The notes: generated by a model not told the origin, from the letters alone. Shown: positions 12,176-57,027, numbered from the stretch's first letter. The stretch is 64,000 nucleotides of DNA from Candidatus Nealsonbacteria bacterium (GCA_026396115.1 JAPLXL010000005.1:2967-66966), one strand, 5' to 3'. Program-made: numbers and translations.

Positions 12176-14770
12176 ATGGCAGATAAATTTAATTTTAATC
12201 TAAAAACAACAGCGATTTATCAGGCAGTAAAATGGGCAAAGAATCCTGTTTTTAAATTGGCAAAATCTTTAAGAAAGCTATTTTTGTTTTTATTTGTTTT
12301 AGTTTTTTTAATATTTATTTATGGGTTTTTAACCGATGCTATCAGTAAAAACGCCCAATCTTTAACCTTAGGATTATCAATAATTTTTCTTACCTTATTT
12401 TTAATTTTTCGGCTAATAGAATCTTTTTTTAATTCAAAAGTTAAAAACCCAAAATTAAACATACAAATTACCGAACTTGTTTCCAATTTAGAAAAGTTCA
12501 ATCTGGCAGATTTTTTAAGTTTTGAAGTTGCCAAAGCAGTTTCAGATTCTATAAAATTTTGCAAAAAAAGGAAAATTGCTGAAATCAGCTCAACTCTGCT
12601 TTTTTACTTTCTTATTTCCAATAATCAAAATTTAAATTTTATATTTTCTCGAGCCCTTTTAAGCGTTAAAGAAATTAAGAAATTTCTTGAAAACTATTTT
12701 AAAACCATAAGCTCCGAAGCCCAGCGAGAGAAGAGGACGAAGTCCTCTTCGAGCATGGTTTATTCGGAAGATTTTCAGTATTCAATTTTTGAATCTCTAA
12801 AAGTAGCCGAAAAAAAGAATCATTTAAGAATTGAAGCGGGAGACATAATTACCGGTCTTGCCAAACATGATTTAATTTTTAAAAAAATTTTAATTGATAA
12901 TAATCTGAAAGTTCAAGATATTGAAAATTTAAGCTGGTGGCTGGAAGATCTGGAAGAAAAAATAAAAGAAAGTAAAAAGTTCTGGGAATGGAAAAACTTA
13001 ATAAAAAGAGGTTCTTTAGGAAAAGAATGGACGGCCGGCTACACTCTTACCTTAGACCGGTTTTCAATTGATTTATCCGAGGTACTAAGGAAAAGAGGAT
13101 TCCCGGAAATTATCGGCCATCAAAAAGAAATTAGTGCCGTGGAAAGGATTTTATCCAGAAGAGAAATAAACAATGTTTTGATAGTTGGCGAAGCGGGCAG
13201 CGGCAGAAAAAGTATGGTTCATGCTTTGGCTAAAAAAAGCGTTTTGGGAGAAAGTTCAGCCGAAGTAAATTATAAAAGAGTTGTTCAATTGGACCTGACA
13301 AACCTTTTAGCCCAGATTTCATCTTTCGAAAAGGTAGAAGTAACTTTGGACAATATCTTTAGAGAAGTGATTTTGGCTGGCAACGTTATTTTGGTTATAG
13401 ACGAGTTTCACAATTTTATTAGCGGCGGCATCAGACCCGGGGTAATAGATATTTCCGGGGTTCTCGCTCCTTATTTGCCATATCCTACTTTTCAGATTGT
13501 AGCCATTACCACTTTTGAAGGTCTTCACAAAAATATTGAACTAAATCCTTCTATTTTATCTCTGTTTGAAAAAGTTGAAGTTGCTGAAGTTTCTGAAAGA
13601 GAGACATTAATGCTTTTGCAAAACCTGAGTTTAATATTGGAACAAAAATACAAAAAATTCGTTTCTTACCAATCCCTCAGAGATATTATTGTTTATTGTT
13701 CAAAGTATTTGCCGGCAATTCCTTTTCCCGAAAAAGCAATGGATTTGCTTGATGAGGTAATGGTTTACCTTAACCAAACCATTAAAGACAAAGTACTTTT
13801 ACCAAAACATATTGCTTATATTATTTCAGAGAAAACTCAAATTCCGATTGGAGAAATAGAAGAAAAAGAAAGACAGGTTTTGCTTAATTTGGAAAATTTA
13901 ATTCATGAGAGAATCATCAATCAGCAGGAAGCTGTTAAAGAGGTTTCCGCCGCCCTAAGAAGGGCCAGGGCAGAGGTTACCACAAGATCTGGCCCCATGG
14001 GAACTTTTTTGTTTTTGGGGCCAACCGGCGTTGGTAAAACCGAGACTTCCAAAGCTCTTGCCGAGATATACTTTGGTTCCGAAGATAGAATGATAAGGTT
14101 AGATATGTCAGAATTTCAAAGCGCTGCGGATATTCCTCATTTACTCGGAGCTCCGGGAGAAGAAGGACTTTTAACCACTGAGGTCAGAAAAAGACCGTTC
14201 TCTTTGATACTTTTAGATGAAATAGAAAAAGCCCATCCCAATGTCTTAAATTTATTTTTGCAAATACTGGACGAAGGACACGTAACGGACGGACTCGGCA
14301 GAAAAGTTGATTTTAAAAATTCGATAATCATTGCTACTTCTAATGCCGGTTATCAAATAATTTTGAAGGCCTTAAAAGAAAAAACCGAATGGTTTAAAGT
14401 TAAACAAAAACTTTTGGACCGTCTTTTTGAAGAAGGGATTTTCAGGCCGGAATTTATCAATCGATTTGATGCAATGGTGGTTTTCAAACCTTTAAGTAAA
14501 GAAAATCTTTTAGATATAGCCGATTTGATGCTCAAAAAATTAAAGAAAAACCTGAAAGAAAAAGAGATTGAGTTTGTTATCACCGAACCTCTCAAAGAAA
14601 GAATAGTTGAATTGGGTTATGACCCGACCTTCGGCGCAAGGCAGATGAGAAGAGTTATTCAAGACAAAATTGAAAATGTTTTAGCTTCTGCGCTTTTGTC
14701 CGGCGAAATCAAAAGGGGGTATAAAGTAGAAATAGATTCTGAAGATTTTAGATTAAAAATAATTCAATAA
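12176..14770 (+). CDS. ClpA/B/C-family double-AAA+ ATPase with N-terminal TM helices
   Basis: D1: IGHQKEISAVERIL..GEAGSGRKS (atypical Walker A) and VILVIDEFHNF. D2: GPTGVGKTE, LILLDEIEKAHP, GARQMRRVIQ. Hydrophobic aa ~35-80. Confidence 0.85.
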   Translation: MADKFNFNLKTTAIYQAVKWAKNPVFKLAKSLRKLFLFLFVLVFLIFIYGFLTDAISKNAQSLTLGLSIIFLTLFLIFRLIESFFNSKVKNPKLNIQITELVSNLEKFNLADFLSFEVAKAVSDSIKFCKKRKIAEISSTLLFYFLISNNQNLNFIFSRALLSVKEIKKFLENYFKTISSEAQREKRTKSSSSMVYSEDFQYSIFESLKVAEKKNHLRIEAGDIITGLAKHDLIFKKILIDNNLKVQDIENLSWWLEDLEEKIKESKKFWEWKNLIKRGSLGKEWTAGYTLTLDRFSIDLSEVLRKRGFPEIIGHQKEISAVERILSRREINNVLIVGEAGSGRKSMVHALAKKSVLGESSAEVNYKRVVQLDLTNLLAQISSFEKVEVTLDNIFREVILAGNVILVIDEFHNFISGGIRPGVIDISGVLAPYLPYPTFQIVAITTFEGLHKNIELNPSILSLFEKVEVAEVSERETLMLLQNLSLILEQKYKKFVSYQSLRDIIVYCSKYLPAIPFPEKAMDLLDEVMVYLNQTIKDKVLLPKHIAYIISEKTQIPIGEIEEKERQVLLNLENLIHERIINQQEAVKEVSAALRRARAEVTTRSGPMGTFLFLGPTGVGKTETSKALAEIYFGSEDRMIRLDMSEFQSAADIPHLLGAPGEEGLLTTEVRKRPFSLILLDEIEKAHPNVLNLFLQILDEGHVTDGLGRKVDFKNSIIIATSNAGYQIILKALKEKTEWFKVKQKLLDRLFEEGIFRPEFINRFDAMVVFKPLSKENLLDIADLMLKKLKKNLKEKEIEFVITEPLKERIVELGYDPTFGARQMRRVIQDKIENVLASALLSGEIKRGYKVEIDSEDFRLKIIQ
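12711..12754 (+). repeat. Hairpin repeat family copy (A-like) in-frame inside the ClpC-like CDS
   Basis: gctccgaagcccagcgagagaagaggacgaagtcctcttcgagc, translated as SSEAQREKRTKSSSSM. Confidence 0.7.
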
Positions 14771-14827
14771 ATCATCTCTTGGGCAATATGCGGTTCCGTT
14801 AAAAACGGGGCCGTTTTATTTTAGGAC

Positions 14828-14995
14828 TGTGGATTTCCTGTGGAAAAATAAACCGTGGTTTTCTATTTTATTCCTATTTTGCCTGTTTTTTAAATGGAAA
14901 AGAATGGTTGACTAAGGATATGAAGTGGATAATAATATAGTTGAAGTGGGGAATTGTGGATAAGTATGTAGATAACTAGCCACTTCTGTGGATAA
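14828..14995 (+). promoter_or_regulatory. Array of same-orientation GTGG boxes (DnaA-box-like TGTGGATAA) overlapping the mraZ promoter; probable MraZ operator
   Basis: tgtggattt 14828, tgtggaaaa 14839, agtggataa 14924, agtggggaa 14945, TGTGGATAA 14955, tgtagataa ~14967, TGTGGATAA 14987. TTGACT lies at 14908. Confidence 0.55.
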
Positions 14996-15013
14996 CTATT
15001 TTACTACTTCATC

Positions 15014-15445: not shown

Positions 15446-15449
15446 TATT

Positions 15450-16349
15450 ATGGTTCATATTCCCGTATTGCAAAAAGAGGTTCTCCAGTATCTTGAGCCA
15501 AAGCCGAATGAAAATTTTATTGATTGTACCATAGGAAAAGGAGGTCATGCCTTAGCTATCTTGGAAAAAAATGGTCCAAATGGAAAAGTATTAGGAATCG
15601 ATCAAGACCAGGAAATAATCCAATGTTTAAAAACCCGAGCCGCAGCGAAGGGTGAAGAAGAACGATTGATTCTGGTTTGTGATAATTTTGCTAACTTAGA
15701 GGAAATCGTTAAAAAACAAAATTTTAAAAAAATATCCGGAATTTTATTTGATTTGGGAATGTCAAGCTGGCATTTAGAAGAGTCGGGTCGGGGATTCAGT
15801 TTTTTAAGGAATGAACCATTAGACATGAGATACGATTTAAGAAATCCTTTGACAGCCGAAAAGATAATAAACTTTTGGTCAGAGCCGGATATAGAAAAAA
15901 TTTTAAAAGAATTTGGAGAAGAAAATTTTTCGGAAAAAATTGCCAAAACCATTATTAAAGAAAGAAAATTCGGCTCGATTAAAACAACTTTTCAATTAGT
16001 AAGAATCATTAAAAAAGCAGTTCCTTTAAGATATCAAGAGCAAAGATTACATTGTGCGACAAGAACATTTCAGGCAATAAGAATTGCGGTAAACGAAGAG
16101 TTAGAGAATTTGAGAAAAGTTCTTCCCCAGGCAGTAGAAATTTTGCCAGCCGAGGGAAAACTGATAGTTATTTCTTTTCATTCTTTGGAAGATAGAATTG
16201 TTAAAAATTTTTTTCGGGAAAAAGCCAGAGAAAATATTTTAAAAATAATAACCAAAAAACCGGTCAGTCCCGACTTAAAAGAAATTAAAATTAATACTCG
16301 GTCTCGGTCCGGTAAGCTGAGAACGGCAGTAAAAATATGTCTCAAATAA
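15450..16349 (+). CDS. rsmH: 16S rRNA (cytosine1402-N4)-methyltransferase RsmH
   Basis: HIPVL..EVL..L, DCTIGKGGHA, DLGMSS, ISFHSLEDRIVK. Confidence 0.95.
   Translation: MVHIPVLQKEVLQYLEPKPNENFIDCTIGKGGHALAILEKNGPNGKVLGIDQDQEIIQCLKTRAAAKGEEERLILVCDNFANLEEIVKKQNFKKISGILFDLGMSSWHLEESGRGFSFLRNEPLDMRYDLRNPLTAEKIINFWSEPDIEKILKEFGEENFSEKIAKTIIKERKFGSIKTTFQLVRIIKKAVPLRYQEQRLHCATRTFQAIRIAVNEELENLRKVLPQAVEILPAEGKLIVISFHSLEDRIVKNFFREKARENILKIITKKPVSPDLKEIKINTRSRSGKLRTAVKICLK
15633..15665 (+). repeat. Hairpin repeat family copy (A, 3' arm degenerate) in-frame inside rsmH
   Basis: acccgagccgcagcgaagggtgaagaagaacga, translated as TRAAAKGEEER. Confidence 0.65.
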
Positions 16350-16687: not shown

Positions 16688-18373
16688 ATGCTTCGTTGGA
16701 AAATCAATTTCATTTTAGTATTCTTGTTTCTTTTAGGAATGGTCATTTTGGGCCGGCTTTTTTATATTCAAGTCGTTAAGGCCGACTTTTACAAAGCTTT
16801 GGCTCAAGGATTATATAGTATTGATAAACAAATTATTGGAGAAAGAGGAGAGATTTTTTTTAAAAACGGGGAAGCTTTAGCCATAAACATGGATTGGTCC
16901 TTGGTTTTTTCCTCACCAATAGAAGTTAAAGAAAAAGAGATTGCCGCCGAAAAATTAGCCGAAATTCTTTCTTTGGGCGAAGAGAATAAATCCTCTTCTT
17001 CCCCCTTCTCTACGGCTCAGGTAGCTAAAGATTTTATTTTGGAAAAATTAGAAAAAAACAATTTATATGAACCCATTAAAAAAAGAATAACTGATGAGGA
17101 AATTCAAAAAATAAAAGAACTAAACCTAAAAGGAATTTATCTGGACAGGGAAAAGGGAAGATACTATCCCCAAGGAACCTTTGCTTCCCAGTTAATCGGT
17201 TTTGTGGACGCCGACCGGCAAGGACAATATGGCATAGAAGGTTATGACGATGAGATTTTGCGGGGTAAAAAAGACCAACGAGGCAAAGATATTTTTTTAA
17301 CTATTGATTACTCCATTCAATTCAGAGCCGAAAAACTTTTAGAACAGGCAAAAGAAAATTTGGAGATTGAGGGCGGAGAAATTATAGTTATGAATCCTGA
17401 TTCCGGAGAAATTTTAGCCTTAGCGAATTTTCCGAACTTTAATCCCAATCAATATTCAGCGGTTTCTGATTTTGAAATTTTTGAAAATGGGGCGACCCAA
17501 AAAATTTTTGAGCCGGGTTCTATTTTCAAACCCATAACTATGGCTGCTGCTTTGAACGAGGAAAAAATCACTCCTCAAACCACTTATCTGGATAAAGGAA
17601 TATTGATGATAGGCGGCTGGCCAATTTCTAACTACGATAACAGAATTCATGGAGAACAAACTATGACTAATGTTTTAGAAAAATCAATTAATACCGGAGC
17701 AGTTTTTGTTGAAGAAAAGCTCGGGCATAATTCCTTTTTGAGGTACTTGGATAAATTCGGTTTTTTTAAACTGACCGGAATCGATCTCCAGGAAGTTTAT
17801 TCTGAAAATAGGGAGTTTAAAAAAGGATATGAAATAAATTTTGTCACGGCCAGTTTTGGCCAGGGAATAGAAATGACGCCAATCCAGTTAATCAGAGCTT
17901 ATAGCGTCATTGCTAATGGTGGAAAACTGGTAAAACCTTATCTGGTTAAGAAAATTATAAATGGCGAGGAGGTTTTGGGTGGCGAAGAGGATAAATCCTC
18001 TTCTTCACCCTTCGCTGCGACTCGGGTAATAGAAGACGATTTGGTAATTTCTCAAAAAACCGCCTCTCAATTAACAGCTATGCTGGTCAGCGTAGTTGAA
18101 AATGGTCCCTATACAAAGGGGGCTAGAATCCCTGGCTATTGGGTTGCAGGTAAAACAGGTACTGCCCAGGTACCAGAAAAAGGAACATATTCATCCGACA
18201 AAACCTGGCAATCGTTTGTAGGATTTGTCCCGGCTTTTAATCCTGAATTTGTAGTTTTAGTAAAACTTGATAATCCGAAGACGAAAACTGCTGAATATTC
18301 GGCAGTTCCTATTTTCCAGGATTTGGCAAAATATATCGTTGATTATTATCAAATACCGCCGGACCATGAATAA
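16688..18373 (+). CDS. ftsI: Penicillin-binding protein 2/FtsI-type transpeptidase
   Basis: N-terminal TM, dimerisation domain, SIFKP (SxxK), SIN (SxN), KTGTA (KTG). Confidence 0.9.
   Translation: MLRWKINFILVFLFLLGMVILGRLFYIQVVKADFYKALAQGLYSIDKQIIGERGEIFFKNGEALAINMDWSLVFSSPIEVKEKEIAAEKLAEILSLGEENKSSSSPFSTAQVAKDFILEKLEKNNLYEPIKKRITDEEIQKIKELNLKGIYLDREKGRYYPQGTFASQLIGFVDADRQGQYGIEGYDDEILRGKKDQRGKDIFLTIDYSIQFRAEKLLEQAKENLEIEGGEIIVMNPDSGEILALANFPNFNPNQYSAVSDFEIFENGATQKIFEPGSIFKPITMAAALNEEKITPQTTYLDKGILMIGGWPISNYDNRIHGEQTMTNVLEKSINTGAVFVEEKLGHNSFLRYLDKFGFFKLTGIDLQEVYSENREFKKGYEINFVTASFGQGIEMTPIQLIRAYSVIANGGKLVKPYLVKKIINGEEVLGGEEDKSSSSPFAATRVIEDDLVISQKTASQLTAMLVSVVENGPYTKGARIPGYWVAGKTGTAQVPEKGTYSSDKTWQSFVGFVPAFNPEFVVLVKLDNPKTKTAEYSAVPIFQDLAKYIVDYYQIPPDHE
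16975..17022 (-). repeat. Hairpin repeat family copy (B, 48 nt) in-frame inside ftsI
   Basis: gggcgaagagaataaatcctcttcttcccccttctctacggctcaggt, translated as GEENKSSSSPFSTAQV. Confidence 0.85.
17980..18027 (-). repeat. Hairpin repeat family copy (B, 48 nt) in-frame inside ftsI
   Basis: tggcgaagaggataaatcctcttcttcacccttcgctgcgactcgggt, translated as GEEDKSSSSPFAATRV. Confidence 0.85.
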
Positions 18374-18920
18374 AATTAAATTTTTTTTAAGAAAGCCAAA
18401 GGTGGTGATTGTTATTGGGGAGAGAAAAAAAATGGTAAAAGAAGCCATTTTTCAGGTTTTGAAGCAATATTCTAAAATTGACAAAGATGTCTTGATTCTT
18501 GAAACAGAAGAAAAAAAAATTAATAAATTTGCTTTTTATTTAAAAAACTCTAAATTGCCGATTTTAGTAATAGCTGGCATTAATGATATCTATTTAGTTA
18601 AAAATCTGCCTGTTAACACTCATTTTGTTTTAAATTACGACGATGAAAAACTAAAAGAAGAAATTAATAACCTTGATAATTTTAAAACCATGAAATTTGG
18701 CTTTAAAGAAGAAAATGATATTTTTGTCTCCGATCTCAAAGAAAACGGCGGGACAAATTTCAAGGTAAATTATAATGGAAAAAGTGTGCCATTTTGGCTG
18801 AATGGACTTCTTGACCAAGAGCAAATTTACGCCATCCTGGCCGCAATCAGCGTTGGCACAATTCTTGGCTTAAACCTGGTGGAAATTTCCCAATCCTTCA
18901 AATACCGAGCTTTCGCGTAG
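18366..18920 (+). CDS. Short, degenerate Mur-ligase-like protein (MurF-like central region, no P-loop)
   Basis: KVVIVIGERKKM sits where GTNGKT is expected. NFKVNYNGKSVPFWLNGLLDQEQIYAILAAISVG resembles the MurF central domain. Only 184 aa, and the stop lies inside a repeat. Confidence 0.4.
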   Translation: MNKIKFFLRKPKVVIVIGERKKMVKEAIFQVLKQYSKIDKDVLILETEEKKINKFAFYLKNSKLPILVIAGINDIYLVKNLPVNTHFVLNYDDEKLKEEINNLDNFKTMKFGFKEENDIFVSDLKENGGTNFKVNYNGKSVPFWLNGLLDQEQIYAILAAISVGTILGLNLVEISQSFKYRAFA

Positions 18921-19005
18921 CGAAAGCGAAAGTAAGAAAGAGGGCGAAGAAAAGCGTTTCTTCTTCCGTCTCGTCTTCGACTCGACGAACGAAGCTCTCT
19001 TCGCC
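18904..19005. repeat. ~100-nt composite multi-hairpin repeat module
   Basis: accgagctttcgcgtagcgaaagcgaaagtaagaaagagggcgaagaaaagcgtttcttcttccgtctcgtcttcgactcgacgaacgaagctctcttcgcc. Confidence 0.8.
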
Positions 19006-19052: not shown

Positions 19053-19128
19053 GGCCCTATCGTCTAGTGGTTCAGGACGTCTGCTTCTCAGGCAGGAAAC
19101 ACCGGTTCAAATCCGGTTGGGGCCGCCA
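19053..19128 (+). tRNA. tRNA-Glu (anticodon CUC), CCA encoded
   Basis: Manual cloverleaf: acceptor GGCCCTA/TGGGGCC, D arm GTCT-AGTGGTTCA-GGAC, anticodon arm TCTGC-TTCTCAG-GCAGG, T arm ACCGG-TTCAAAT-CCGGT, then G-CCA. Confidence 0.85.
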
Positions 19129-21908: not shown

Positions 21909-21921
21909 AAAAAAATCACCA

Positions 21922-22023
21922 ACCGAGCTTTCACGCAGTGAGGGCGAATCGAAGAACATTCGTTCTTCTCTACCCTTCGCTGCGACTCGGGTAGGTGAAG
22001 AAGAGGGCGAAACCCTCTTCGCC
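21922..22023. repeat. ~100-nt composite multi-hairpin repeat module in the 5' UTR of the ATPase gene
   Basis: accgagctttcacgcagtgagggcgaatcgaagaacattcgttcttctctacccttcgctgcgactcgggtaggtgaagaagagggcgaaaccctcttcgcc. Confidence 0.85.
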
Positions 22024-22037
22024 TAAATATACTGATT

Positions 22038-24833
22038 ATGAATTCATTCCATTCCAAATCCATTGAGAAGACCTTGGAAGAACTTTCTTCTTATCCGGAA
22101 GGTTTGACTTCAGAGGAAGTGAAAAACCGTTGGCAAAAATTCGGTTTTAATGAAATACCCGAGAAAAGGGCCTTGCACCCGGCTTTTATTTTTTTGAAAC
22201 AGTTCCATTCTTGGCTGATATACATACTTATTGGAGCAGCTCTTTTTTCCTTTTGGACCAGGCACATGTTCGATGTTTATATAATTTCGGCCGTTCTTTT
22301 GCTTAATGCTCTCATGGGCTTTATTCAAGAATCCAAGGCAGAGAAAGCCATTAGGGCTTTAAAGAAGATGGTTGTGCCTTTTGCTAAAGTCATCAGAGAA
22401 GGGGAGTTATTAAAAATTCCGGCCAAAGAATTGGTTCAAGGCGATATTATTTTATTGGGAGAAGGAGATAGAATTCCGGCTGACGCCAGATTGTCGGAAT
22501 TAAAGAATTTTAGGACAATGGAAGCGGCCTTAACAGGTGAATCGGTTCCGGTAGATAAAAACCTTGAAGAGCTGCCCAAAAAAACTCCTTTGGCTGACCA
22601 AAAAAATATGATTTGGCTGGGAACATTTGTTACAGCTGGTCAAGCAAAGGCAATAGTTGTTGCCACCGGACCCAAAACCGCTTTGGGACAAATCGCTGAA
22701 AGTCTTGAAAAAATTGAAACTCCGAAAACTCATTTCAAAATAAAAACCGATTTGCTGGCAAAACAAATGGCCGGAATTGCTTTTGGTTGTGTTTCGGCGC
22801 TTTTATTGGTTGCGTTATTTATTGGCCATTTTGAATTTAAAGATGCATTTCGTTTTGCGGTTGCCGCTCTTGTTTCGGCAATTCCCGAGGGACTGCCAAT
22901 AGTATTGGTCATTGTTCTGGCCATGGGAGCTCACCGGATGGCAAAAAGAAATGCGATTGTCAGAAACCTGCAGGCTACAGAAACTCTTGGCGTGGCAAAT
23001 ATTATTGCCGTGGATAAAACCGGAACTATTACTCAAAACACAATGGACGCAGAAAAAATAATTTTATTAAATCAAGAAGAAATTACGGTTTCCGGAGGCG
23101 GCTGGAAGCCAAAAGGCGAATTTATTCAAAAAGAAAAAGTTTTCTTTCCTTTGGAAAATCCTCAATTAAGAAAGCTTTTACATATTGCCTGTATTTGCAA
23201 CAATGCCAGATTGCTCAAAGAAAACGGCAAAAAGGAAAATTACAGAATCATTGGCGACCCGACAGAGGCGGCCTTGGTTGTCCTGGCAGAAAAGGCCGGG
23301 CTTAAAAAAGAAGTTTTGCTGGAAAAAGAAAAAATAATTGATGATTTGCCATTTAATCCGGAATTAAAATATGGAGCTTCGCTTATCGAGCTTCCGCAGG
23401 AAGCGAAAATTAAGAAGAGGATAAATTCCTCTTCGCCTGCTATTTTAACTAAAGATACGACAGAAAAAGAAATTTATGTAGTTGGGGCGCCGGAAGCTAT
23501 TTTAGAAATTTCTTCCTCAGGATTTGGAGAAAAAGAGAAGAAATTAGCGCTAAAAGAAAAAAAAGAAATTTTAAATAAAGTAGAAGGTTTAGCAAAAAAT
23601 GGTTTAAGGGTTATCGGGTTGGCTTATAAAACCGTTCCTTTTGAAACGGAAAAATTGACCCCAGACCTAATTAAAAACCTCGTTTTTGTGGGAGCGGTAG
23701 GAATGGAAGATCCCCCGAGGCCCGAAGTTAAAGAAGCTATTGCCAAAACAAAAACAGCCGGAATCAGAGTGATTATGAAAACCGGCGACCATAAAGAAAC
23801 TGCCATAGCTATTGCCAGAGAAATCGGTTTAGTCAAAAATGAAAAAGAGAACAATTATCCTTTGGCTTTAACCGAAAAAGAATTAGAAAAGTTGACTGAG
23901 AAAGAGTTTAACGAAGCAGTAAAGCATGTTTCAATTTTTGCCAGATTAACTCCGGCAATGAAATTAAAAATTTTAGAAAGCTTGCAAAAACAAGGATATA
24001 TTGTGGCCATGACCGGTGACGGAGTCAATGACGCCCCGGCTTTAAAAAAAGCTGATATTGGCATTGCTATGGGACAAATCGGTACCGATGTTGCCAGAGA
24101 AAGCAGTTCCATGGTTTTGGCCGATGATAATTTTACTTCCATTGTCAATGCCATTGAAGAAGGAAGAACCGTTTTTACTAACGTTAAACAAGTCAGCCTG
24201 TTTTTAATTACCACCAATTTTGCTGAAATTGCCACCCTGGTAACTTCTTTAATCATCGGTGCTTATTTGTGGGGCCAAACCCTTTTGATTATTTTGCCGG
24301 CTACCATTATTTTTATGAATTTAGTAACCGATGGCTTTGCCGATGTTGCTTTGGCTTGCGAGCCCAGTCATGAAGATGTCTTGAAAAAACCGCCGAGAAA
24401 AAAAGAAGAAAATATTTTGTCCAAAGATATTTTCCCATTTTTAGTTTTAATGGTTATGATAATGACCGTTTTAACGATTTTTATTTTTAAAACCTTTTTA
24501 CTTCAGGATTCTTTGGAAAAAGCCAGGGCCGGTGCTTTTGCCGTCATGGCTATTACCCAGTTATTTAATGTTCTTAATATGAGGAGTCTCAACCAATCCA
24601 TTTTTAAGATAGGGTTCTTTTCTAACAAATTCATAGTGGGAGGTTTGACAGTTTCTATTATTTTAATAATAATAGCTCTTTTTGTCGGAGGTGTGGCGGA
24701 AAAATTTGGCTTTGAACCTCTTTCTCTTTCAGAATTTTTAATCATAATCTTGCTTTCCTCTCTGGTTTTGTGGGGCGGAGAACTCTATAAATATTGGCGT
24801 CGAAGGTCAACACGCTTTTTGTTGAAAAATTAG
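22038..24833 (+). CDS. Cation-transporting P-type ATPase (type II, Ca2+-ATPase-like)
   Basis: LTGESVPV, VDKTGTITQN, MKTGDH, MTGDGVNDAPALKKADIGIAMG, about 10 TM segments. Confidence 0.9.
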   Translation: MNSFHSKSIEKTLEELSSYPEGLTSEEVKNRWQKFGFNEIPEKRALHPAFIFLKQFHSWLIYILIGAALFSFWTRHMFDVYIISAVLLLNALMGFIQESKAEKAIRALKKMVVPFAKVIREGELLKIPAKELVQGDIILLGEGDRIPADARLSELKNFRTMEAALTGESVPVDKNLEELPKKTPLADQKNMIWLGTFVTAGQAKAIVVATGPKTALGQIAESLEKIETPKTHFKIKTDLLAKQMAGIAFGCVSALLLVALFIGHFEFKDAFRFAVAALVSAIPEGLPIVLVIVLAMGAHRMAKRNAIVRNLQATETLGVANIIAVDKTGTITQNTMDAEKIILLNQEEITVSGGGWKPKGEFIQKEKVFFPLENPQLRKLLHIACICNNARLLKENGKKENYRIIGDPTEAALVVLAEKAGLKKEVLLEKEKIIDDLPFNPELKYGASLIELPQEAKIKKRINSSSPAILTKDTTEKEIYVVGAPEAILEISSSGFGEKEKKLALKEKKEILNKVEGLAKNGLRVIGLAYKTVPFETEKLTPDLIKNLVFVGAVGMEDPPRPEVKEAIAKTKTAGIRVIMKTGDHKETAIAIAREIGLVKNEKENNYPLALTEKELEKLTEKEFNEAVKHVSIFARLTPAMKLKILESLQKQGYIVAMTGDGVNDAPALKKADIGIAMGQIGTDVARESSSMVLADDNFTSIVNAIEEGRTVFTNVKQVSLFLITTNFAEIATLVTSLIIGAYLWGQTLLIILPATIIFMNLVTDGFADVALACEPSHEDVLKKPPRKKEENILSKDIFPFLVLMVMIMTVLTIFIFKTFLLQDSLEKARAGAFAVMAITQLFNVLNMRSLNQSIFKIGFFSNKFIVGGLTVSIILIIIALFVGGVAEKFGFEPLSLSEFLIIILLSSLVLWGGELYKYWRRRSTRFLLKN
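23385..23437 (+). repeat. Hairpin repeat family copy (A) in-frame inside the P-type ATPase (cytoplasmic N-domain region)
   Basis: atcgagcttccgcaggaagcgaaaattaagaagaggataaattcctcttcgcc, translated as IELPQEAKIKKRINSSSPA. Confidence 0.8.
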
Positions 24834-28450: not shown

Positions 28451-28535
28451 TTCAATGAATCTTCGATTCATTTCAATGTTCAATGAATTTTTAATTCATT
28501 TCACCTTCGACTTCAATAAATTTTCAATTTATTTC
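28451..28535 (+). repeat. Three tandem imperfect palindromes (TTCAATGAAT-N5-ATTCATTTC type) just upstream of rmuC
   Basis: ttcaatgaatcttcgattcatttc (28451), ttcaatgaatttttaattcatttc (28479), ttcaataaattttcaatttatttc (28512). Confidence 0.8.
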
Positions 28536-28536: not shown

Positions 28537-29559
28537 ATGAATGATTTTCTTTTTGTCTTGATAATATTTTTGATTGTGGCGGCAGGCGTGGGAGCAATCT
28601 TTTTTTTATTGCGTAAATCAAGAACTGATGAAAAACAGAGTGGCGCTATAGAAGATTTAAAAATAAGATTAGCTGAAATGACAGGTATTTTAAAAGAGAT
28701 GAGCGACAGCCAAGATGGAACTTCAAGAGCAATGCAAGATCAAATGCATTCTTTTACCAAAGAAGCAACCCAGATAAGAGAAGATTTAAAACATGTTCAA
28801 GAAAGCGTAAAAGACGTTTCTTCTTTTCAGGAAATTTTCAAAGCGCCAAAACTCAGGGGGCAATGGGGTGAAGCGTCTTTAGAACACATTTTATCCCAGC
28901 ACTTTCCCTCAGAGCTTTACAAATTACAATATCTGTTTTCTTCGGGCGAACAGGTAGACGCTGTGTTATCGCTTCCTAATGCCAAAACCCTGCCGATTGA
29001 CGCTAAATTTCCCTCTGAAAACTTTACTAAAATGGTTGAAGCTTCGGGCGCTGAAAAGGATGCTTTCCGGAAAAAATTCATTGATGACATCAAAGGCCAT
29101 ATTGATAAAATCGCTGCAAAATATATAATACCTGCCGATGGAACCGTTGATTTCGCTTTAATGTATATTCCGGCCGAAGCCATTTATTACGAGATAGTTA
29201 ATAATATTGGCAAAGAATTTGATTTAACGGGTTACGCTATGTCAAAGAAAGTGGTTCTCACTTCTCCCAACACGATTTATTTAACCTTAAGAACAATCGA
29301 GCATTGGTTTAAAGATACCCAAATTTCCCGGCAAACGCAGGAAATTCTGAAAAGATTAAATAAGGTTTATCAGGACGCCGGAAAGTTAATGGATGATTTC
29401 AGAAAACTGGGTTCACATTTAAAAAATGCCGTTTCTTCTTATGACAGTTCGGAAAAACGTCTTGATATGTTTTCTGACAAGGTCGAAAGATTATTAGAGG
29501 TCAAAAAAACTAAAGTTTCTTCTTCCCCCTCGCTTCGCTCGGGAGGTCAAAGAAGTTAA
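28537..29559 (+). CDS. rmuC: DNA recombination protein RmuC
   Basis: N-terminal TM, coiled coil, KLRGQWGEASLEHIL and the nuclease-like C-terminal half. The last ~14 aa are repeat-derived. Confidence 0.85.
   Translation: MNDFLFVLIIFLIVAAGVGAIFFLLRKSRTDEKQSGAIEDLKIRLAEMTGILKEMSDSQDGTSRAMQDQMHSFTKEATQIREDLKHVQESVKDVSSFQEIFKAPKLRGQWGEASLEHILSQHFPSELYKLQYLFSSGEQVDAVLSLPNAKTLPIDAKFPSENFTKMVEASGAEKDAFRKKFIDDIKGHIDKIAAKYIIPADGTVDFALMYIPAEAIYYEIVNNIGKEFDLTGYAMSKKVVLTSPNTIYLTLRTIEHWFKDTQISRQTQEILKRLNKVYQDAGKLMDDFRKLGSHLKNAVSSYDSSEKRLDMFSDKVERLLEVKKTKVSSSPSLRSGGQRS
29515..29545 (-). repeat. Half copy of the hairpin repeat family (B) forming the RmuC C-terminus
   Basis: gtttcttcttccccctcgcttcgctcgggag, which matches unit 4 of the 3423 array. 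Translated as VSSSPSLRSGG. Confidence 0.7.
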
Positions 29560-31960: not shown

Positions 31961-32010
31961 GTCGAAGAGATAAATCTCTTCTTCATCTTTGCTTCCTTCG
32001 GAAGCTCGAT
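31961..32010 (-). repeat. Hairpin repeat family copy (B) upstream of dnaB
   Basis: gtcgaagagataaatctcttcttcatctttgcttccttcggaagctcgat. Confidence 0.8.
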
Positions 32011-32015
32011 AATTA

Positions 32016-32053
32016 AAAATTTATTGAAAATTGAAATGAATTGAAAATTCATT
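32016..32053. repeat. Palindromic motif pair of the AATGAAT-N5-ATTCATT type in the dnaB upstream region
   Basis: AATGAATtgaaaATTCATT at 32035-32053, preceded by atttattgaaaattgaaat. Same motif and spacing as the rmuC-upstream triplet. Confidence 0.7.
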
Positions 32054-32100
32054 GGTCATACGAATGTAAATTAGCACAAGGGAGGCAAATGCGCAAATTG

Positions 32101-35324: not shown

Positions 35325-35395
35325 TGCGGGGTCGTCTAATGGTAGGACAACAGATTTTGGATCTGTCTATCTTGGTTCGAATCCAAGCCCCGCAG
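35325..35395 (+). tRNA. tRNA-Gln (anticodon UUG)
   Basis: Manual cloverleaf: acceptor TGCGGGG/CCCCGCA, anticodon arm ACAGA-TTTTGGA-TCTGT, T arm CTTGG-TTCGAAT-CCAAG. Confidence 0.8.
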
Positions 35396-35401
35396 CAAAA
35401 T

Positions 35402-35435
35402 AAAAATCGCCAATCAGGCGGTTTTTTGGTAAGAT
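35402..35435 (+). promoter_or_regulatory. Conserved terminator-hairpin / extended -10 module
   Basis: aaaaatCGCCaatcaGGCGgttttttGGTAAGAT. The ATG at 35444 is 8 nt after the -10. Confidence 0.6.
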
Positions 35436-35443
35436 AAAAACAT

Positions 35444-42253: not shown

Positions 42254-42265
42254 GAAATGAAGTTC

Positions 42266-42323
42266 AAAAAATCGCCAGGAAGGCGGTTTTTTGGTTGACA
42301 AATTTAAAATAGATATATATAAT
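42266..42323 (+). promoter_or_regulatory. Conserved terminator-hairpin module fused to a perfect TTGACA-17-TATAAT promoter
   Basis: aaaaaatCGCCaggaaGGCGgttttttgg, then TTGACA (42295-42300), 17-nt spacer, TATAAT (42318-42323). Confidence 0.7.
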
Positions 42324-44973: not shown

Positions 44974-45005
44974 GAGTCGCCAATGGAGCGATTTTTTGGT
45001 AGAAT
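44974..45005 (+). promoter_or_regulatory. Conserved terminator-hairpin / extended -10 module
   Basis: gagTCGCcaatggaGCGAttttttGGTAGAAT. Confidence 0.55.
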
Positions 45006-45030
45006 ATAGGATATAAATCATCAAAATTGT

Positions 45031-46239: not shown

Positions 46240-46302
46240 AAAATACGAGTGTGGATTATATTTTGGAATTTTCTCGTAAGAGGTTGCCGGCAAATGAAGT
46301 TC

Positions 46303-46337
46303 AAAAAATTGCCAAGAATGCGGTTTTTTGGTAAAAT
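46303..46337 (+). promoter_or_regulatory. Conserved terminator-hairpin / extended -10 module
   Basis: aaaaaattgccaagaatgcggttttttGGTAAAAT. The ATG at 46344 is 6 nt after the -10. Confidence 0.55.
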
Positions 46338-47148: not shown

Positions 47149-47183
47149 CTAGCACATGCTAAGTCAGGTGACCGAGCCATCCA

Positions 47184-47215
47184 GAATCGCCAAGAAGGCG
47201 TTTTTTTGGTAGAAT
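47184..47215 (+). promoter_or_regulatory. Conserved terminator-hairpin / extended -10 module
   Basis: agaatCGCCaagaaGGCGtttttttGGTAGAAT. Confidence 0.6.
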
Positions 47216-47228
47216 AAAAAAGATTTTT

Positions 47229-51365: not shown

Positions 51366-51418
51366 AAAAGAGACATAAAAGAGAAAAATGACTAAAAAGA
51401 AAAAAAGATAAACTTTAT

Positions 51419-51458
51419 AAAAAATCGCCAAGAAGGCGGTTTTTTGTTAATGTAAAAT
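51419..51458 (+). promoter_or_regulatory. Conserved terminator-hairpin module with a downstream -10-like box
   Basis: aaaaaatCGCCaagaaGGCGgttttttgttaatgtaaaat. The ATG at 51462 follows immediately. Confidence 0.5.
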
Positions 51459-51461: not shown

Positions 51462-52259
51462 ATGTTGACTCTCTCGGGTTTAAAAAAAGAATTAAAAGCC
51501 AAAGCCAGTCCCAAAAAGGCGAAGATCCTGCAAAGATTCTTTAAAACAGGTCCCGGAGAATACGGCTATGGTGATGTTTTTTTAGGCGTGGTGGTTCCGG
51601 AAACAAGGAAAGTAGCCAAGAAATACAGCACTCTTAAAGTGGCAGATGCGGTAAAATTATTGCATTCCAAAATCCATGAAGAAAGATTAGCTGCTCTTTT
51701 AATTATGGTTGATAAATTTCAAGCTCCCGAGCAACAGCGAAGTCGAAAAAGGATTTCATCCTCTTTCTTACCTTCGCTTCCTTCGAAAGCTCGGTGGGGG
51801 AAGAAGAAAGTTTACTTTCTTCGCCCCGGAAACGAACAAGAAATAATTTATAAAACATATTTGAAAAACACAAAATACATAAATAATTGGGATTTGGTGG
51901 ATTTGTCGGCTGAAAAAATAGTAGGGGATTATCTTTTTGATAAACCGAAAGAAATTCTTTACAAATTAGCTAAATCAAAAAGCGTTTGGGAAAGAAGAAT
52001 AGCCATTATAGCAACTTTTAACTTTATTAAAAACAATAAGTTTGAAGAAACTTTTAAAATTTCTAAAATTCTTTTAAATGATGAACATGATTTAATCCAT
52101 AAAGCGGTTGGTTGGATGTTAAGAGAGGTTGGCAAGAGAGATATTAAAACAGAAAAAGATTTTCTTGATAAATATTCTAAAAAAATGGCTAGAACTACGT
52201 TTCGCTATGCCATTGAGAGATTTCCGGAAAAAAATATGTTAATTAAAAAGAAAAAATAA
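51462..52259 (+). CDS. DNA alkylation repair protein (AlkD-like HEAT-repeat family) carrying a ~33-aa repeat-derived insertion
   Basis: KAKILQRFFKTGPGEYGYGDVFLGV, NNWDLVD, HDLIHKAVGWMLRE. Confidence 0.75.
   Translation: MLTLSGLKKELKAKASPKKAKILQRFFKTGPGEYGYGDVFLGVVVPETRKVAKKYSTLKVADAVKLLHSKIHEERLAALLIMVDKFQAPEQQRSRKRISSSFLPSLPSKARWGKKKVYFLRPGNEQEIIYKTYLKNTKYINNWDLVDLSAEKIVGDYLFDKPKEILYKLAKSKSVWERRIAIIATFNFIKNNKFEETFKISKILLNDEHDLIHKAVGWMLREVGKRDIKTEKDFLDKYSKKMARTTFRYAIERFPEKNMLIKKKK
51725..51825. repeat. ~100-nt composite hairpin repeat module inserted in-frame in the AlkD-like CDS
   Basis: ctcccgagcaacagcgaagtcgaaaaaggatttcatcctctttcttaccttcgcttccttcgaaagctcggtgggggaagaagaaagtttactttcttcgcc, translated as APEQQRSRKRISSSFLPSLPSKARWGKKKVYFLRPG. 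Confidence 0.8.
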
Positions 52260-52709: not shown

Positions 52710-52738
52710 ATTATAATATTTAAAGTAAGATGTGTCAA
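52710..52738 (-). promoter_or_regulatory. Consensus promoter on the minus strand
   Basis: Minus-strand reading: TTGACA, 17-nt spacer, TATAAT. Confidence 0.65.
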
Positions 52739-52825
52739 GTTTTCTTATTTTGACAAGAGAAACGTTTAAGTTAAGAGAATCCGAAAACAGAAAAAGAAAA
52801 TAGAGCTGACACCTATTTTCTTTAC

Positions 52826-52864
52826 TAAAAATCCTCTTATCTCTACAAAAGAAATAAGAGGATT
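52826..52864 (-). terminator. Rho-independent terminator of plsC
   Basis: AATCCTCTTAT...ATAAGAGGATT 11-bp stem with a T-run on the minus strand. Confidence 0.75.
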
Positions 52865-53598: not shown

Positions 53599-53748
53599 CT
53601 CCTGAAAGAATTAATTGTTGATTGATAAATATACAATTAAATATGCTAAATGTCAATCGGGTTTTTAATTTGAGTTATTTTTAGCTATAATAAAAGAAAC
53701 TAAGACCAAAGGAAAAATGGTGTCAACTCTGATTCTTTAAAGCAAAAT

Positions 53749-54264: not shown

Positions 54265-54273
54265 TATATATTT

Positions 54274-55527
54274 ATGGAAGAAGAATATCAACAAAAATCT
54301 GAGAAAATTTTCTCCGTTTCGGAGTTTATAACGCTTCTGAATATAGGACTTAATAAGTCCCAAGTTAAAATGATTGGAGAAGTAAGCGAGGCAAAGATCA
54401 ATTCGTCTGGCCATGTTTATTTTGTGTTAAAAGATAAAAAAGATGGAAGCGTAATAAATTGTGCAATCTGGAAACATAGATATGCGATATATGGAATCAA
54501 GTTGAAGGAGGGAATGGAGATTATTGTTTTTGGCCACCCCAATATACATAAAACTTATGGATTTTCTTTTATAGTCGAAACGGTTGAGTTGGCCGGGGAG
54601 GGAGCTTTAAAAAAAGAATACGAGAGATTGAAAAAGAAACTGACAGAAGAAGGGCTTTTTGCCGAGGAAAGAAAAAAACTGATTCCAAAATATTGCCGCA
54701 AGGTGGGTCTGATTACCTCAAAACAGGGTGCGGCTCTGGGGGATTTTTTAAGCAATTTGGGAAAATACGGATTTCAGATAAAAATGATTGATTCACGCGT
54801 TGAGGGGCAGGAAGCAGTTACCGAACTTTTGCGCTCAATAAAGACATTCAGAAATCAGGATATAGATGTTTTAGCCATAATCCGCGGGGGAGGATCGGCT
54901 GAATCTTTGGAAGTATTCAATAATGAATTGCTGGTCAGGGAGGTGGCAAAATTTCCGGTTCCGGTAATCGCGGGCATTGGACACGACAAAGACGAGCCGT
55001 TGGTTGCCTTGGCGGCCGACGCTTCGGAATCCACTCCTACTGCCGTTGCCAACCTGCTTAATGAATCATGGGAAGAAGCCCTCCTGCGTTTGGAGAGATA
55101 TGAGAGGGGAATTTTGGGATACTTTGAGGAAATTTTTGAAAAATATAGAAACGCAGAGCGCTCATTAATGATTTCTTTTGGGAACTTTAAAAATGCTTTA
55201 TTAAATGTTAAAATGAATTTAAGAAATTCGGTTAATAAATCTCTTTCTGGATTTAAATCATTATTATCAAAAATTAATCAGCAGCTGGAACACGCTGAAA
55301 AAGTAGTTAATCTTAATAATCCGGTGCGGCAATTAATGCTCGGTTACAGTATTGCCAGATGTCATGGCAGAATAATTAGAACCGTGAAAAATACCAAAAT
55401 AGGGGACAATATAGACATTCAAGTAATTGATGGAAAAATTAATTCGGAGGCGAAGAGAATTTCATTCTCTTCTTCACCTTCGCCCCTCCTCCAAAAAAGG
55501 GGCTCGGTAAGTAAAAAATATAAGTAA
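54274..55527 (+). CDS. xseA: Exodeoxyribonuclease VII large subunit
   Basis: OB-fold N-terminus (VSEFITLLN...GEVSE...SGHVYFVLKD), RGGGS, GIGHD. The C-terminal ~25 aa are repeat-derived. Confidence 0.9.
   Translation: MEEEYQQKSEKIFSVSEFITLLNIGLNKSQVKMIGEVSEAKINSSGHVYFVLKDKKDGSVINCAIWKHRYAIYGIKLKEGMEIIVFGHPNIHKTYGFSFIVETVELAGEGALKKEYERLKKKLTEEGLFAEERKKLIPKYCRKVGLITSKQGAALGDFLSNLGKYGFQIKMIDSRVEGQEAVTELLRSIKTFRNQDIDVLAIIRGGGSAESLEVFNNELLVREVAKFPVPVIAGIGHDKDEPLVALAADASESTPTAVANLLNESWEEALLRLERYERGILGYFEEIFEKYRNAERSLMISFGNFKNALLNVKMNLRNSVNKSLSGFKSLLSKINQQLEHAEKVVNLNNPVRQLMLGYSIARCHGRIIRTVKNTKIGDNIDIQVIDGKINSEAKRISFSSSPSPLLQKRGSVSKKYK
55449..55508 (-). repeat. Hairpin repeat family copy (B) forming the XseA C-terminus
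   Basis: ggcgaagagaatttcattctcttcttcaccttcgcccctcctccaaaaaaggggctcggt, translated as EAKRISFSSSPSPLLQKRGSV. Confidence 0.8.
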
Positions 55528-55553
55528 AAAAATATAGCGAAGAATTAAAAATT

Positions 55554-55787
55554 ATGGCAAAAGAAAAACCAGACACAAAAAATTTAAATAATAGTCTTAA
55601 ACGTCTATTTGAAATTACCGAATGGTTTGACAACCAGGAAGAAATTGATGTTGAAGAAGGATTAAAAAAGGTAAAAGAAGCGGCAGAGCTTATTAAAGCC
55701 AGCAAAGAACGACTTAAAACTGTTGAAAATGAGTTTGAGGAAATCAAAAAAGAAATAGATATTGAGGAGGAAAAAGAACAAATATGA
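55554..55787 (+). CDS. xseB: Exodeoxyribonuclease VII small subunit
   Basis: 77 aa, helical, directly downstream of xseA. LKRLFEITEWFDN...EEGLKKVKEAAELIK. Confidence 0.8.
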   Translation: MAKEKPDTKNLNNSLKRLFEITEWFDNQEEIDVEEGLKKVKEAAELIKASKERLKTVENEFEEIKKEIDIEEEKEQI

Positions 55788-55924
55788 GAAAATCGAGAAA
55801 GTATTCGACAAAAAAAGTTCTTAGTAAGAAGATATTTTTTCCTCAGATAACCAAATTCAGGGTGAGAAGCGTAGCGGCGAGATTGGAACATCGAAGAGTG
55901 GAAGGAAAAAGAAATAAATAAAAG

Positions 55925-55964
55925 GGATCGCCCCGCTTACATCGGGACGATTTTTTAGTATAAT
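55925..55964 (+). promoter_or_regulatory. Hairpin plus T-run fused to TATAAT; rlmN ATG 7 nt downstream (leaderless candidate)
   Basis: gatCGCCCCGcttacatCGGGACGattttttagTATAAT, then tttcact, then ATG (55972). Confidence 0.55.
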
Positions 55965-55971
55965 TTTCACT

Positions 55972-57027
55972 ATGGATTTAATACAATTTCAAAAATTATT
56001 TAAGAAAGAACCAAGATATCGTTCGGAGCAAGCTAAAAGATCCCTTTTCCGGGATTTAATTCAAAACTGGCAGGAAGCGGTGACCCTACCCTTAAGTTTA
56101 AGAGAAGAATTAAATAAAAAATGTCCGATTGAAATATCGGCAAAAACATTTTTTTCTAAAGACAAAAATACAATAAAAGCTCTTCTTACTCTAAAAGATG
56201 GTCTGAAAATTGAAACAGTTTTGATGCGTCATAAAGATAAAAGAAATACCATTTGCGTTTCTTCTCAGGTTGGTTGTCCTCTGAAGTGTTCTTTTTGTGC
56301 CACAGGAAAGATAGGATTTGAAAGAAACCTAGAGATTTGGGAAATTGTTGAACAAGTTTTATTTTTCGCCCGTTATTTGAAAAAAATTAAAGAGACGGTC
56401 AGTAATATTGTCTTTATGGGAATGGGAGAGCCATTTTTAAATTATCAGAATGTAATAGGGGCAATAAAAATCTTGAACGATAGAGATGGATTTAATTTAG
56501 GAGCAAGGCATTTTTCAATCTCTACTGTTGGAATTGTTGAGGGAGGGATTGAAGAATTAGCCAAAGAAAAATTACAGATAAATTTAGCTATTTCTCTTCA
56601 TGCGCCAAATGACGAACTCCGTTCAAAATTGATGCCGATTAACAAAAAATATCCTATCAAGAAGATTTTAAATGCGGTAGACGACTACATTAAGAAGACT
56701 CGGCGGCGGGTAATGTTTGAGTATATAATGATAAAGAATTTAAATGATTCTGAAGAACACGCTCAAACATTAGCCGGGTTGATGAAAAAACCTCTTTATT
56801 TTGTTAATCTAATTTCTTATAACCCAACTGGAATTTTTAAACCTTCCTCCTCCCGAGCAACAGCGAAGGGGGAAGAAGAAAATCTATTTTCTTCGCCCTC
56901 TTTAAGAATTAAAAAATTTAAAGAAATCTTAGAAAAAGAGGGTGTGATGGTTACCCAGAGATATCGTTTTGGCGAAGATATTGAGGCTGCTTGTGGCCAA
57001 CTGGTGGCTAAAGATGGGAGAAAATAA
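55972..57027 (+). CDS. rlmN: 23S rRNA/tRNA adenine-C2 methyltransferase RlmN (radical SAM)
   Basis: CVSSQVGCPLKCSFCATG, GMGEPFLNY, C-terminal ...AACGQL. Confidence 0.9.
   Translation: MDLIQFQKLFKKEPRYRSEQAKRSLFRDLIQNWQEAVTLPLSLREELNKKCPIEISAKTFFSKDKNTIKALLTLKDGLKIETVLMRHKDKRNTICVSSQVGCPLKCSFCATGKIGFERNLEIWEIVEQVLFFARYLKKIKETVSNIVFMGMGEPFLNYQNVIGAIKILNDRDGFNLGARHFSISTVGIVEGGIEELAKEKLQINLAISLHAPNDELRSKLMPINKKYPIKKILNAVDDYIKKTRRRVMFEYIMIKNLNDSEEHAQTLAGLMKKPLYFVNLISYNPTGIFKPSSSRATAKGEEENLFSSPSLRIKKFKEILEKEGVMVTQRYRFGEDIEAACGQLVAKDGRK
56851..56897 (+). repeat. Hairpin repeat family copy (A) in-frame inside rlmN
   Basis: tcccgagcaacagcgaagggggaagaagaaaatctattttcttcgcc, translated as SRATAKGEEENLFSSP. 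Confidence 0.8.

Follow-up and report, generated by a model that had tools for sequence, protein, structure and literature searches.

In-frame copies of a short palindromic repeat family in conserved genes of Candidatus Nealsonbacteria

Introduction

How can a short palindromic repeat lie inside genes for conserved, essential-type enzymes and leave them intact? The question is raised by a 64-kb stretch of DNA (hereafter, the window), part of a 225-kb contig from a Candidatus Nealsonbacteria metagenome-assembled genome (MAG; Patescibacteria). A sequence-only reading of the window had noticed copies of one hairpin-forming repeat, in frame, within several recognisable open reading frames (ORFs), and had compared this with the behaviour of Rickettsia palindromic elements (RPEs). 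We found the comparison supported by orthologs that lack the segments, by intact host genes and by the placement of inserts in loops. Patescibacteria genomes are very small, gene-dense and poor in mobile DNA. Despite this streamlining, the window holds about three copies per 10 kb of a repeat that is very probably active, including copies in genes for cell division, rRNA modification, DNA repair and transport.

The GC content of the window is 33-42%, and ORFs cover about 90% of it. At species level, the closest relatives belong to Nealsonbacteria and other Patescibacteria and are 60-71% identical. Two much closer sequences served for the comparison of alleles: L154, a JGI contig (duplicated in ENA) that is syntenic to the window over 9.6-30 kb at 94-97.5% nucleotide identity, and L156 (GCA_030692425.1), which is ~95% identical to the window. 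The ortholog set for FtsI (n = 69) comes from GTDB species representatives, that for the ClpC-like protein has 43 members, and the RlmN set (n = 45) is metagenomic. The NCBI, JGI and ENA records are independent assemblies and are mutually consistent. The FtsI of the window is 100% identical to an NCBI protein of a Candidatus Nealsonbacteria MAG, where it is listed as an ordinary protein.

Inserts in conserved genes

The host genes, all confirmed by Pfam, encode a ClpB/ClpC-type AAA+ ATPase, RsmH (MraW), a PBP2/FtsI transpeptidase, a P-type cation ATPase, an AlkD-type DNA alkylation repair protein and the radical-SAM enzyme RlmN. The six peptides quoted in the sequence-only reading do lie in frame, within uninterrupted ORFs, where they had been placed (ClpC-like, 12710-12757; RsmH, 15633-15665; FtsI, 16976-17023 and 17981-18028; P-type ATPase, 23385-23441; RlmN, 56851-56898), and the composite of ~100 nt proposed for AlkD was found in frame as 102 nt at 51723-51824. 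All seven internal cases on that list are present, and three C-terminal copies had been overlooked. The comparison with orthologs that it proposed returned empty orthologs or alleles for FtsI site 1, RlmN, AlkD and the P-type ATPase.

The AlkD composite (minus strand) adds 34 aa and consists of two hairpin and two second-hairpin modules in mixed orientation. L150 and L151 are empty at this site, with flanking DNA that is 100% identical over >60 nt on each side and a protein that is 95% identical over aligned columns; the filled allele recurs in L153, and an independent second assembly has it. RlmN contains a 48-nt unit in frame (RATAKGEEENLFSSPS; 56851-56898, minus strand), where each of the 45 orthologs, among them L070 and L071 (79-83% identity), has a gap of exactly 16 aa. 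Empty-site DNA reads CCTTCCTCC before and TCTTTAAG after the insertion point. FtsI site 1 also holds a 48-nt unit in frame (GEENKSSSSPFSTAQV; 16975-17022, plus strand), against which all 69 orthologs have an exact 16-aa gap. This site is empty in L154, P0123, P0124, P0128 and P0129, filled in L156, L159, L158 and P0126, and doubled in L157. The nucleotide-binding domain of the P-type Ca-ATPase-like protein carries, in frame, a 54-nt unit of the subtype with a 21-nt hairpin (IELPQEAKIKKRINSSSPA; 23384-23437, minus strand). Here too filled and empty alleles exist: the window and L154 have the 54 nt, L156 lacks exactly these, and the more distant L003 and L004 are without them as well.

At the second FtsI site, in the transpeptidase domain, a 48-nt unit in frame (GEEDKSSSSPFAATRV; 17980-18027, plus strand) replaces five native codons, for a net gain of about 36 nt. 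The site is a variable loop; L154 is empty, and L156 retains the first arm only, joined to native GAAGAGGAT. For RsmH, the claimed insertion holds for the presence of element sequence and fails for net insertion. The segment (TRAAAKGEEER; 15633-15673, minus strand; nhmmer E=1.5e-7) comprises the second-hairpin module and first arm only, and is what remains of a 48-nt insertion once 42 nt had been deleted. Three allelic states were found: L156 is empty, L154 carries all 48 nt of the unit, and in the window the unit has been shortened by 42 nt (the hairpin and 21 native bases, between GAAGA repeats). Because the insertion was followed by this deletion, the window protein is of near normal length (net +2 aa relative to T. 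maritima MraW). The ClpC-like segment is the weakest case of insertion. It is present (SSEAQREKRTKSSSSM; 12710-12757, minus strand), with a 9-3-9 hairpin that pairs perfectly at 12730-12750 and a second module that is degenerate, but it occupies a linker of variable length across the 43 orthologs. The sole difference from the closest relative, 95%-identical L154, is the 21-nt hairpin (21 nt at 12726-12746 are missing there).

The three C-terminal copies extend or terminate their hosts. A cytidylyltransferase takes its last 16 aa (...ESRLRDEGEEENEVLFA) and its stop codon from the element (10066-10115, minus strand), and the L125 ortholog ends before the element. RmuC ends in an element-derived tail (KVSSSPSLRSGGQRS; 29499-29559, plus strand), where more distant orthologs end in ...KKLK. 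XseA (exonuclease VII large subunit) likewise has a C-terminal tail from the element (55441-55527, plus strand; repeat, hairpin and Pfam searches).

Structure and copy number of the repeat

A search of the window for direct and inverted repeats yielded one dominant family, with about 20 loci. The core hairpin has the form GAAGARnnn-loop(2-5)-nnnYTCTTC with a stem of 8-9 bp, lies between flanks of GGC and TTCACC/TTCCCC, and is followed by a second hairpin of variable sequence within CTTCGC...GCTCGGG. Over 22 aligned copies, the 5' flank is (A/G/T)GGC and the 3' flank TT(C/T)(A/C)CC. The commonest complete unit is 48 nt, which equals 16 codons. There are two subtypes, one with a 20-nt hairpin and a short second hairpin (48 nt in total) and one with a 21-nt hairpin and a longer second hairpin (54-57 nt), and units occur singly, in head-to-tail arrays and in composites of mixed orientation. 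Core hairpins were identified at 29 window sites, about 24 of them clearly of this family, where shuffled sequence is expected to give 0.68; a sequence-only nhmmer profile of the 48-nt unit has 16 window matches at E<0.01. Copy numbers are roughly equal on both strands, so a preference for one replication strand is unsupported.

Pairing is found in 98.3% of stem cells (22 distinct aligned copies). The three inner pairs of the 8 change on both sides, in 20 cells versus 6.3+/-2.3 when shuffled (0/500 shuffles as high), a covariation figure that is somewhat overstated because the copies were partly selected for complementarity. The 22 aligned copies lack a GTAG/CGTC tag beside the hairpin, and GTAG occurs only sporadically at unit junctions. 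Searching the whole window against Rfam at the gathering threshold returned two tRNAs only and no match to the repeat. [quoted passage not shown] The family is scarcely seen in the remaining 60-odd related species of the sample, with three significant matches in 1.04 Mb (first 69 loci).

Turnover among close relatives

When the window is compared with L154 or L156, almost every indel of 20 nt or more is a copy of the element; the two unrelated exceptions are 33 and 34 nt long. Six indels are present in the window only (11613-11669, 12071-12170, 12726-12746, 16978-17025, 17987-18022 and 18905-18994). Present in relatives only are 42 nt in RsmH, together with 45 nt at a second site, and 48 nt in L156 within a Mur-ligase-like ORF. 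A class-IV aminotransferase gene contains, in frame, 93 nt in L154 or 51 nt in L156, and is empty in the window. The aminotransferase copies (L154:12589-12681, L156:5516-5566 and L158:4024-4115; window equivalent, 19425) comprise one or two units. Either the window lineage has lost the element precisely here, or the site is a hot spot where insertion recurred.

At FtsI site 1, the insert is common to lineages at 79-92% protein identity, and in all of them the second module has TACGGYTCAGG. L157 has two units in tandem. L159 has the hairpin of the first unit with the original second module, and its stem differs from that of L156 by three fully compensated pairs; it looks like a recombinant of the two L157 tandem units. 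New units tend to arrive beside existing ones, and copies recombine or are partly deleted between their GAAGA-rich arms. The family is very probably active at present in one sub-clade of Candidatus Nealsonbacteria.

Reading frames and selection

Ten of the about 20 loci lie outside ORFs, though only ~10% of the window is non-ORF (binomial P=5e-6). Genic indels are without exception multiples of 3 (21, 36 net, 42, 45, 48, 51, 54, 93 and 102 nt); those between genes, four events only, measure 45, 57, 90 and 100 nt. The consensus unit has a stop in one frame per orientation, and three classes of frame are used: GEEDKSSSSPFAA.RV (forward), TRAAAKGEEEDLSSSP (reverse) and PEQQ..KKRI.SSS (reverse, 21-nt hairpin). 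In 6/7 genic hairpins, translation of the second arm gives Ser-Ser (P=0.007). A Leu-rich forward frame (AKRINPLLPPSLRLG) is open yet never used. That the translated frame is in every case the hydrophilic one, as proposed, holds only in part, because some unused frames are equally hydrophilic: the used frames are indeed hydrophilic (grand average of hydropathy -0.8 to -1.8), but several of the unused ones are open and hydrophilic as well.

Insertion may be largely blind to gene boundaries, with selection sorting the copies afterwards. To survive within a gene, a copy would need to keep the frame, to have no stop in the frame that is read, to encode a hydrophilic peptide of low complexity (e.g., GEEDKSSSSPF..., TRAAAKGEEE... 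or ...KKRINSSSP) and to fall in a surface loop, a linker or a C-terminus. If survival is limited to tolerated copies in this way, host proteins would stay functional with a disordered loop of 7-34 aa added.

Host proteins

The possibility that the hosts are pseudogenes was examined as the sequence-only reading had suggested, and they proved to have intact frames, preserved catalytic motifs and a ratio of nonsynonymous to synonymous substitution (dN/dS) like that of their neighbours. Relative to L154, L156 or L150, dN/dS is 0.16-0.31 in host genes of the window and 0.14-0.46 in insert-free neighbours. SxxK, SxN and KTG are invariant columns in FtsI, RlmN retains CxxxCxxC and the Cys of the C-terminal CGQL, and the P-type ATPase retains DKTGT and TGDGVNDAPAL. 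The genes ftsI and rsmH are at their usual place in the mraZ-rsmH-ftsL-ftsI cluster. Thus, we infer from conserved sequence features that the host proteins are probably functional with their inserts. A second P-type ATPase was considered as a backup and rejected: it is the sole paralog in the window and is 28% identical.

The expectation that only inserts compatible with surface loops survive was borne out for AlkD and for both FtsI inserts, which fall in loops of AlphaFold models. In the AlkD model, with a mean predicted local distance difference test score (pLDDT) of 83, residues 91-122 score <50 between helices 72-87 and 124-135, and their surroundings score >90. FtsI insert 1 is coil between helices 83-93 and 110-121 (pLDDT<50 at 98-108), and insert 2 is coil between strands 428-430 and 448-452 (pLDDT<50 at 434-443). 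These low values weigh less than those of AlkD, because the whole FtsI model (AF2) is only moderately confident, with a mean pLDDT of 65.6. Against structure 6fz6, the RlmN insert is a gap that follows the last barrel strand and precedes the C-terminal helix, and that of the P-type ATPase is an alignment gap against LMCA1 (6zhf), in the nucleotide-binding domain.

Two neighbouring observations concern genes of this region. By eye, the ClpC-like ATPase (12176-14770) has apparent N-terminal hydrophobic segments, and the P-loop of its first domain is unusual (GEAGSGRKS); these features point to a putative membrane-anchored, possibly half-inactive AAA+ protein typical of the clade. Directly after ftsI, a short ORF (18267-18920) matches only the end of a Mur ligase middle domain. 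The repeat was rejected as the cause of this truncation, as L154 and L156 have this short ORF too.

Origin and spread

We consider it highly probable that the family consists of small, non-autonomous palindromic repeats of the type of repetitive extragenic palindromic sequences (REPs) and bacterial interspersed mosaic elements (BIMEs), with genic insertions filtered by selection. Sequence-identical units have been gained and lost at unrelated sites among ~95%-identical genomes. No consistent target-site duplication was found at four clean junctions, including AlkD, RlmN and RsmH (at that of RlmN, a CCTC is ambiguous), and terminal inverted repeats are absent, the unit ends GGGCGAAG and GCTCGGGT not being mutual inverted repeats. 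Spread may depend on a trans-acting enzyme that recognises single-strand hairpins, of the HUH/REP-associated tyrosine transposase (RAYT) type (IS200/IS605-like), or on replication-associated template switching. The lack of target-site duplication, the dependence on a hairpin and insertion beside existing copies would fit either. The core pattern has no match in viral contigs, so nothing points to a phage vector.

Several points weigh against this REP-type reading. Pfam identified no transposase in the 48 window ORFs of at least 131 aa (39 besides the nine hosts), and there is none among the called genes of L154 and L156 either. Movement is deduced from patterns of presence and absence, and the aminotransferase site and FtsI site 1 may each reflect gain or precise loss. 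Function of the proteins with inserts is likewise deduced, the FtsI model is of moderate confidence, and the copies counted for covariation had in part been chosen for complementarity.

The alternative that survives best, though we regard it as unlikely, is that copies spread by host recombination and replication errors (hairpin template switching, gene conversion and indels at GAAGA-tract microhomologies) and involve no dedicated enzyme. The window without a transposase and the junctions without target-site duplication agree with this. So do target sites that resemble element arms, namely the native GGCGAGGAG and GAAGACGAT of FtsI site 2 and the aminotransferase site (AAGAAGAGGG before, GGAG after), deletions with their ends at GAAGA microhomologies (window RsmH and L156 FtsI site 2) and the exchange of the FtsI site 1 hairpin module between lineages. 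However, clean 48-nt unit insertions are also found at unrelated places that resemble the element little or not at all, such as AlkD (TTTCAA before, CCGGAAAC after) and RlmN, and the contrast between about 20 loci per 64 kb here and near absence in most of 69 related species looks like an element burst. Recombination accounts better for turnover than for first arrival at a new site.

It is improbable that genic copies are kept for their usefulness, either as mRNA hairpins that tune translation or stability or as Glu/Lys/Ser-rich loops that act as flexible linkers or modification sites. Most genic hairpins are fully complementary, FtsI site 1 differs between lineages by three compensatory pairs and its insert persists at 79-92% identity, and a frame preference exists, all of which could be expected of useful copies. 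However, the stem swaps are explained by exchange with copies elsewhere that bear the same stems, and the analogous insert in Rickettsia gmk was reported to be neutral or slightly harmful (PMC2229807). Moreover, each genic insert tested is polymorphic among genomes that are very closely related, the genes with empty alleles look healthy, the hosts have unrelated functions, and copies are strongly enriched outside genes.

That the interrupted genes are not expressed as written, because the element is removed from the transcript or because the genes are young pseudogenes backed up elsewhere, is very improbable: host dN/dS is like that of neighbours, frames and catalytic residues are intact, filled alleles are conserved in divergent lineages, ftsI and rsmH keep their normal cluster position, and we know of no bacterial mechanism to excise a 48-nt mRNA segment and religate the ends.

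A REP-type family under selective filtering permits a further, more tentative suggestion. The element might be adapted to a ~90%-coding genome as a 16-codon 'translatable REP', open and Glu/Lys/Ser-rich in either orientation, which lands safely inside essential genes and continually adds, doubles and removes disordered loops (e.g., in FtsI) in natural populations. If so, it would be a standing source of variation in loop length in a streamlined lineage.

Intergenic copies and other repeats

Between genes, single copies were located upstream of tgt (920-960, plus strand; repeat and hairpin searches), downstream of tgt (2131-2192, minus strand, with a longer second hairpin GCTTCC/GGAAGC; repeat, hairpin and profile searches), at 2813-2875 (plus strand; repeat and hairpin searches) and between dnaB and cysS (31962-32020, plus strand; repeat, hairpin and profile searches). 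Four 48-nt units form a head-to-tail intergenic array at 3423-3614 (plus strand; E values 1e-12 to 1e-17). Repeat, hairpin and profile searches also identified a BIME-like composite of two opposed units upstream of greA (6753-6850) and a composite upstream of the P-type ATPase gene (21910-22026). A 57-nt copy at a gene junction (11613-11669, minus strand) is present in the window only and absent in L154, in a segment that is 97.5% identical. A 100-nt composite directly upstream of the ClpC-like gene (12071-12170), also confined to the window, and a 90-nt composite (18905-18994) are absent in L154 as well; L156 is without 45 nt of the latter. The window has two tRNA genes (19053-19125 and 35325-35395), the first just downstream of the 90-nt composite.

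Other Parcubacteria have in-frame, hairpin-forming inserts of their own in RlmN (FTRRSLGEGG), FtsI (RSDISGVPPAIDR) and RsmH (L071:2816-2857, L035:11234-11284 and 8878-8946, and L156:2111-2155), one of them with a different stem (GATGAGC/GCTCATC). This suggests that the behaviour is wider than the Nealsonbacteria family. Among AlkD homologs (P0016 and P0094/P0105), one has a C-terminal extension (...RTSPSSLPQLKLRWVKKRFISS...) and the others N-terminal extensions (...AVGEEELAKF) that resemble translations of the element.

A second dispersed repeat consists of a terminator-like hairpin, AAAAATCGCCAAGAAGGCGGTTTTTT, followed directly by GGTAGAATA (35390-35443, 42255-42295, 44975-45013, 46292-46332, 47170-47223, 51408-51448, 57015-57055 and 59512-59565). 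From its sequence, it looks like a shared cassette of terminator and putative extended -10 promoter between genes. A third, small hairpin family (AATGAATTnnnAATTCATT) is intergenic at 28453-28533 and 32011-32066, and a 33-nt copy at 28478-28510 is absent in L154. A large surface-type protein (37235-39793) has six tandem repeats of 153 nt (51 aa), and in the ORF upstream of it (35826-37193) a 151-nt segment is duplicated with 97% identity (36010 and 37036).

Implications

The family is of value chiefly because a streamlined lineage offers, in genes of essential type, a clean natural set of alleles with and without the insert. Near-identical alleles of both kinds in public metagenomes amount to a natural experiment on how conserved enzymes tolerate loop insertions, and they can also be used as strain-level markers. 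The inserts call for caution in the annotation of candidate-phylum genomes, as they inflate protein length, mimic lineage-specific loops and can give false C-termini.

Comparison with known systems

The defining behaviour of RPEs (Ogata et al. 2000, Science) is that palindromic repeats of 105-146 bp are fused in frame into conserved Rickettsia genes, and the fusion in R. conorii gmk was shown to be translated and active (PMC2229807, PMC10969869). In the window, the same behaviour is seen in seven internal and three C-terminal in-frame cases, with more in relatives. As with RPEs, a palindromic family in a small-genome bacterium is found both between genes and in frame in many unrelated conserved genes, the hosts are intact, and the inserts are short peptides that are apparently compatible with the fold. 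Unlike the Nealsonbacteria unit, RPEs form one long stem-loop (105-146 bp) that has terminal inverted repeats, and they lengthen proteins by about 30-50 aa; the unit here is 48 nt long, has two short hairpins and adds 16 aa, and only composites reach 90-102 nt. The two differ in phylum and probably in sequence, and the ten RPE families are restricted to Rickettsia. Because the host is a Patescibacterium, membership by descent is unlikely. A further difference is that the Nealsonbacteria repeat has filled and empty alleles among ~95%-identical genomes and grows in tandem within a gene.

Short REPs within ORFs encode 20-30 aa as singles, dimers or clusters in several bacteria, including Opitutus terrae and Thauera, and REP ends can provide stop codons (PMC3733652). 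The suggestion in the sequence-only reading that in-frame behaviour had not been described for such elements was therefore overstated, as in-frame intragenic REPs are documented beyond Rickettsia (PMC3733652); for Patescibacteria, full-text literature searches found no report of them. Likeness to the GTAG/CGTC REPs, which include R. conorii RPE-4 and RPE-6, and to BIME mosaics (Di Nocera et al. 2013, PMC3733652) extends to the short imperfect palindromes with compensatory changes (REP stems of 5-13 bp and loops of 2-20 nt; here 8-9 bp and 2-5 nt), to singles, opposed dimers and clusters (here the composites at 6753-6850, 12071-12170, 18905-18994, 21910-22026 and 51723-51824 and the array at 3423-3614), and to a distribution mostly between or downstream of genes, with a minority in ORFs and ends that can give stops or C-terminal residues. 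In contrast to REPs, the Nealsonbacteria repeat has no GTAG/CGTC tag, has GGC and TTCACC/TTCCCC flanks and an obligatory second hairpin, and is not linked to a RAYT in the 64-kb window or among the called genes of L154 and L156.

Miniature transposable elements with inverted repeats (MITEs) that have in-frame fusions, such as ERIC, the 107-bp form of Correia, QMITE1 and Anabaena MITEs (PMC2229807, PMC10969869), are also small, non-autonomous, open in frame and sometimes fused to host ORFs. However, they are 70-300 bp long, with terminal inverted repeats of about 15-30 bp and target-site duplications, and the Nealsonbacteria repeat has neither feature. It is a well-documented new family of a known element type, not a new kind of element, and implies no new principle; with it, the RPE phenomenon of Rickettsia is extended to a distant phylum.

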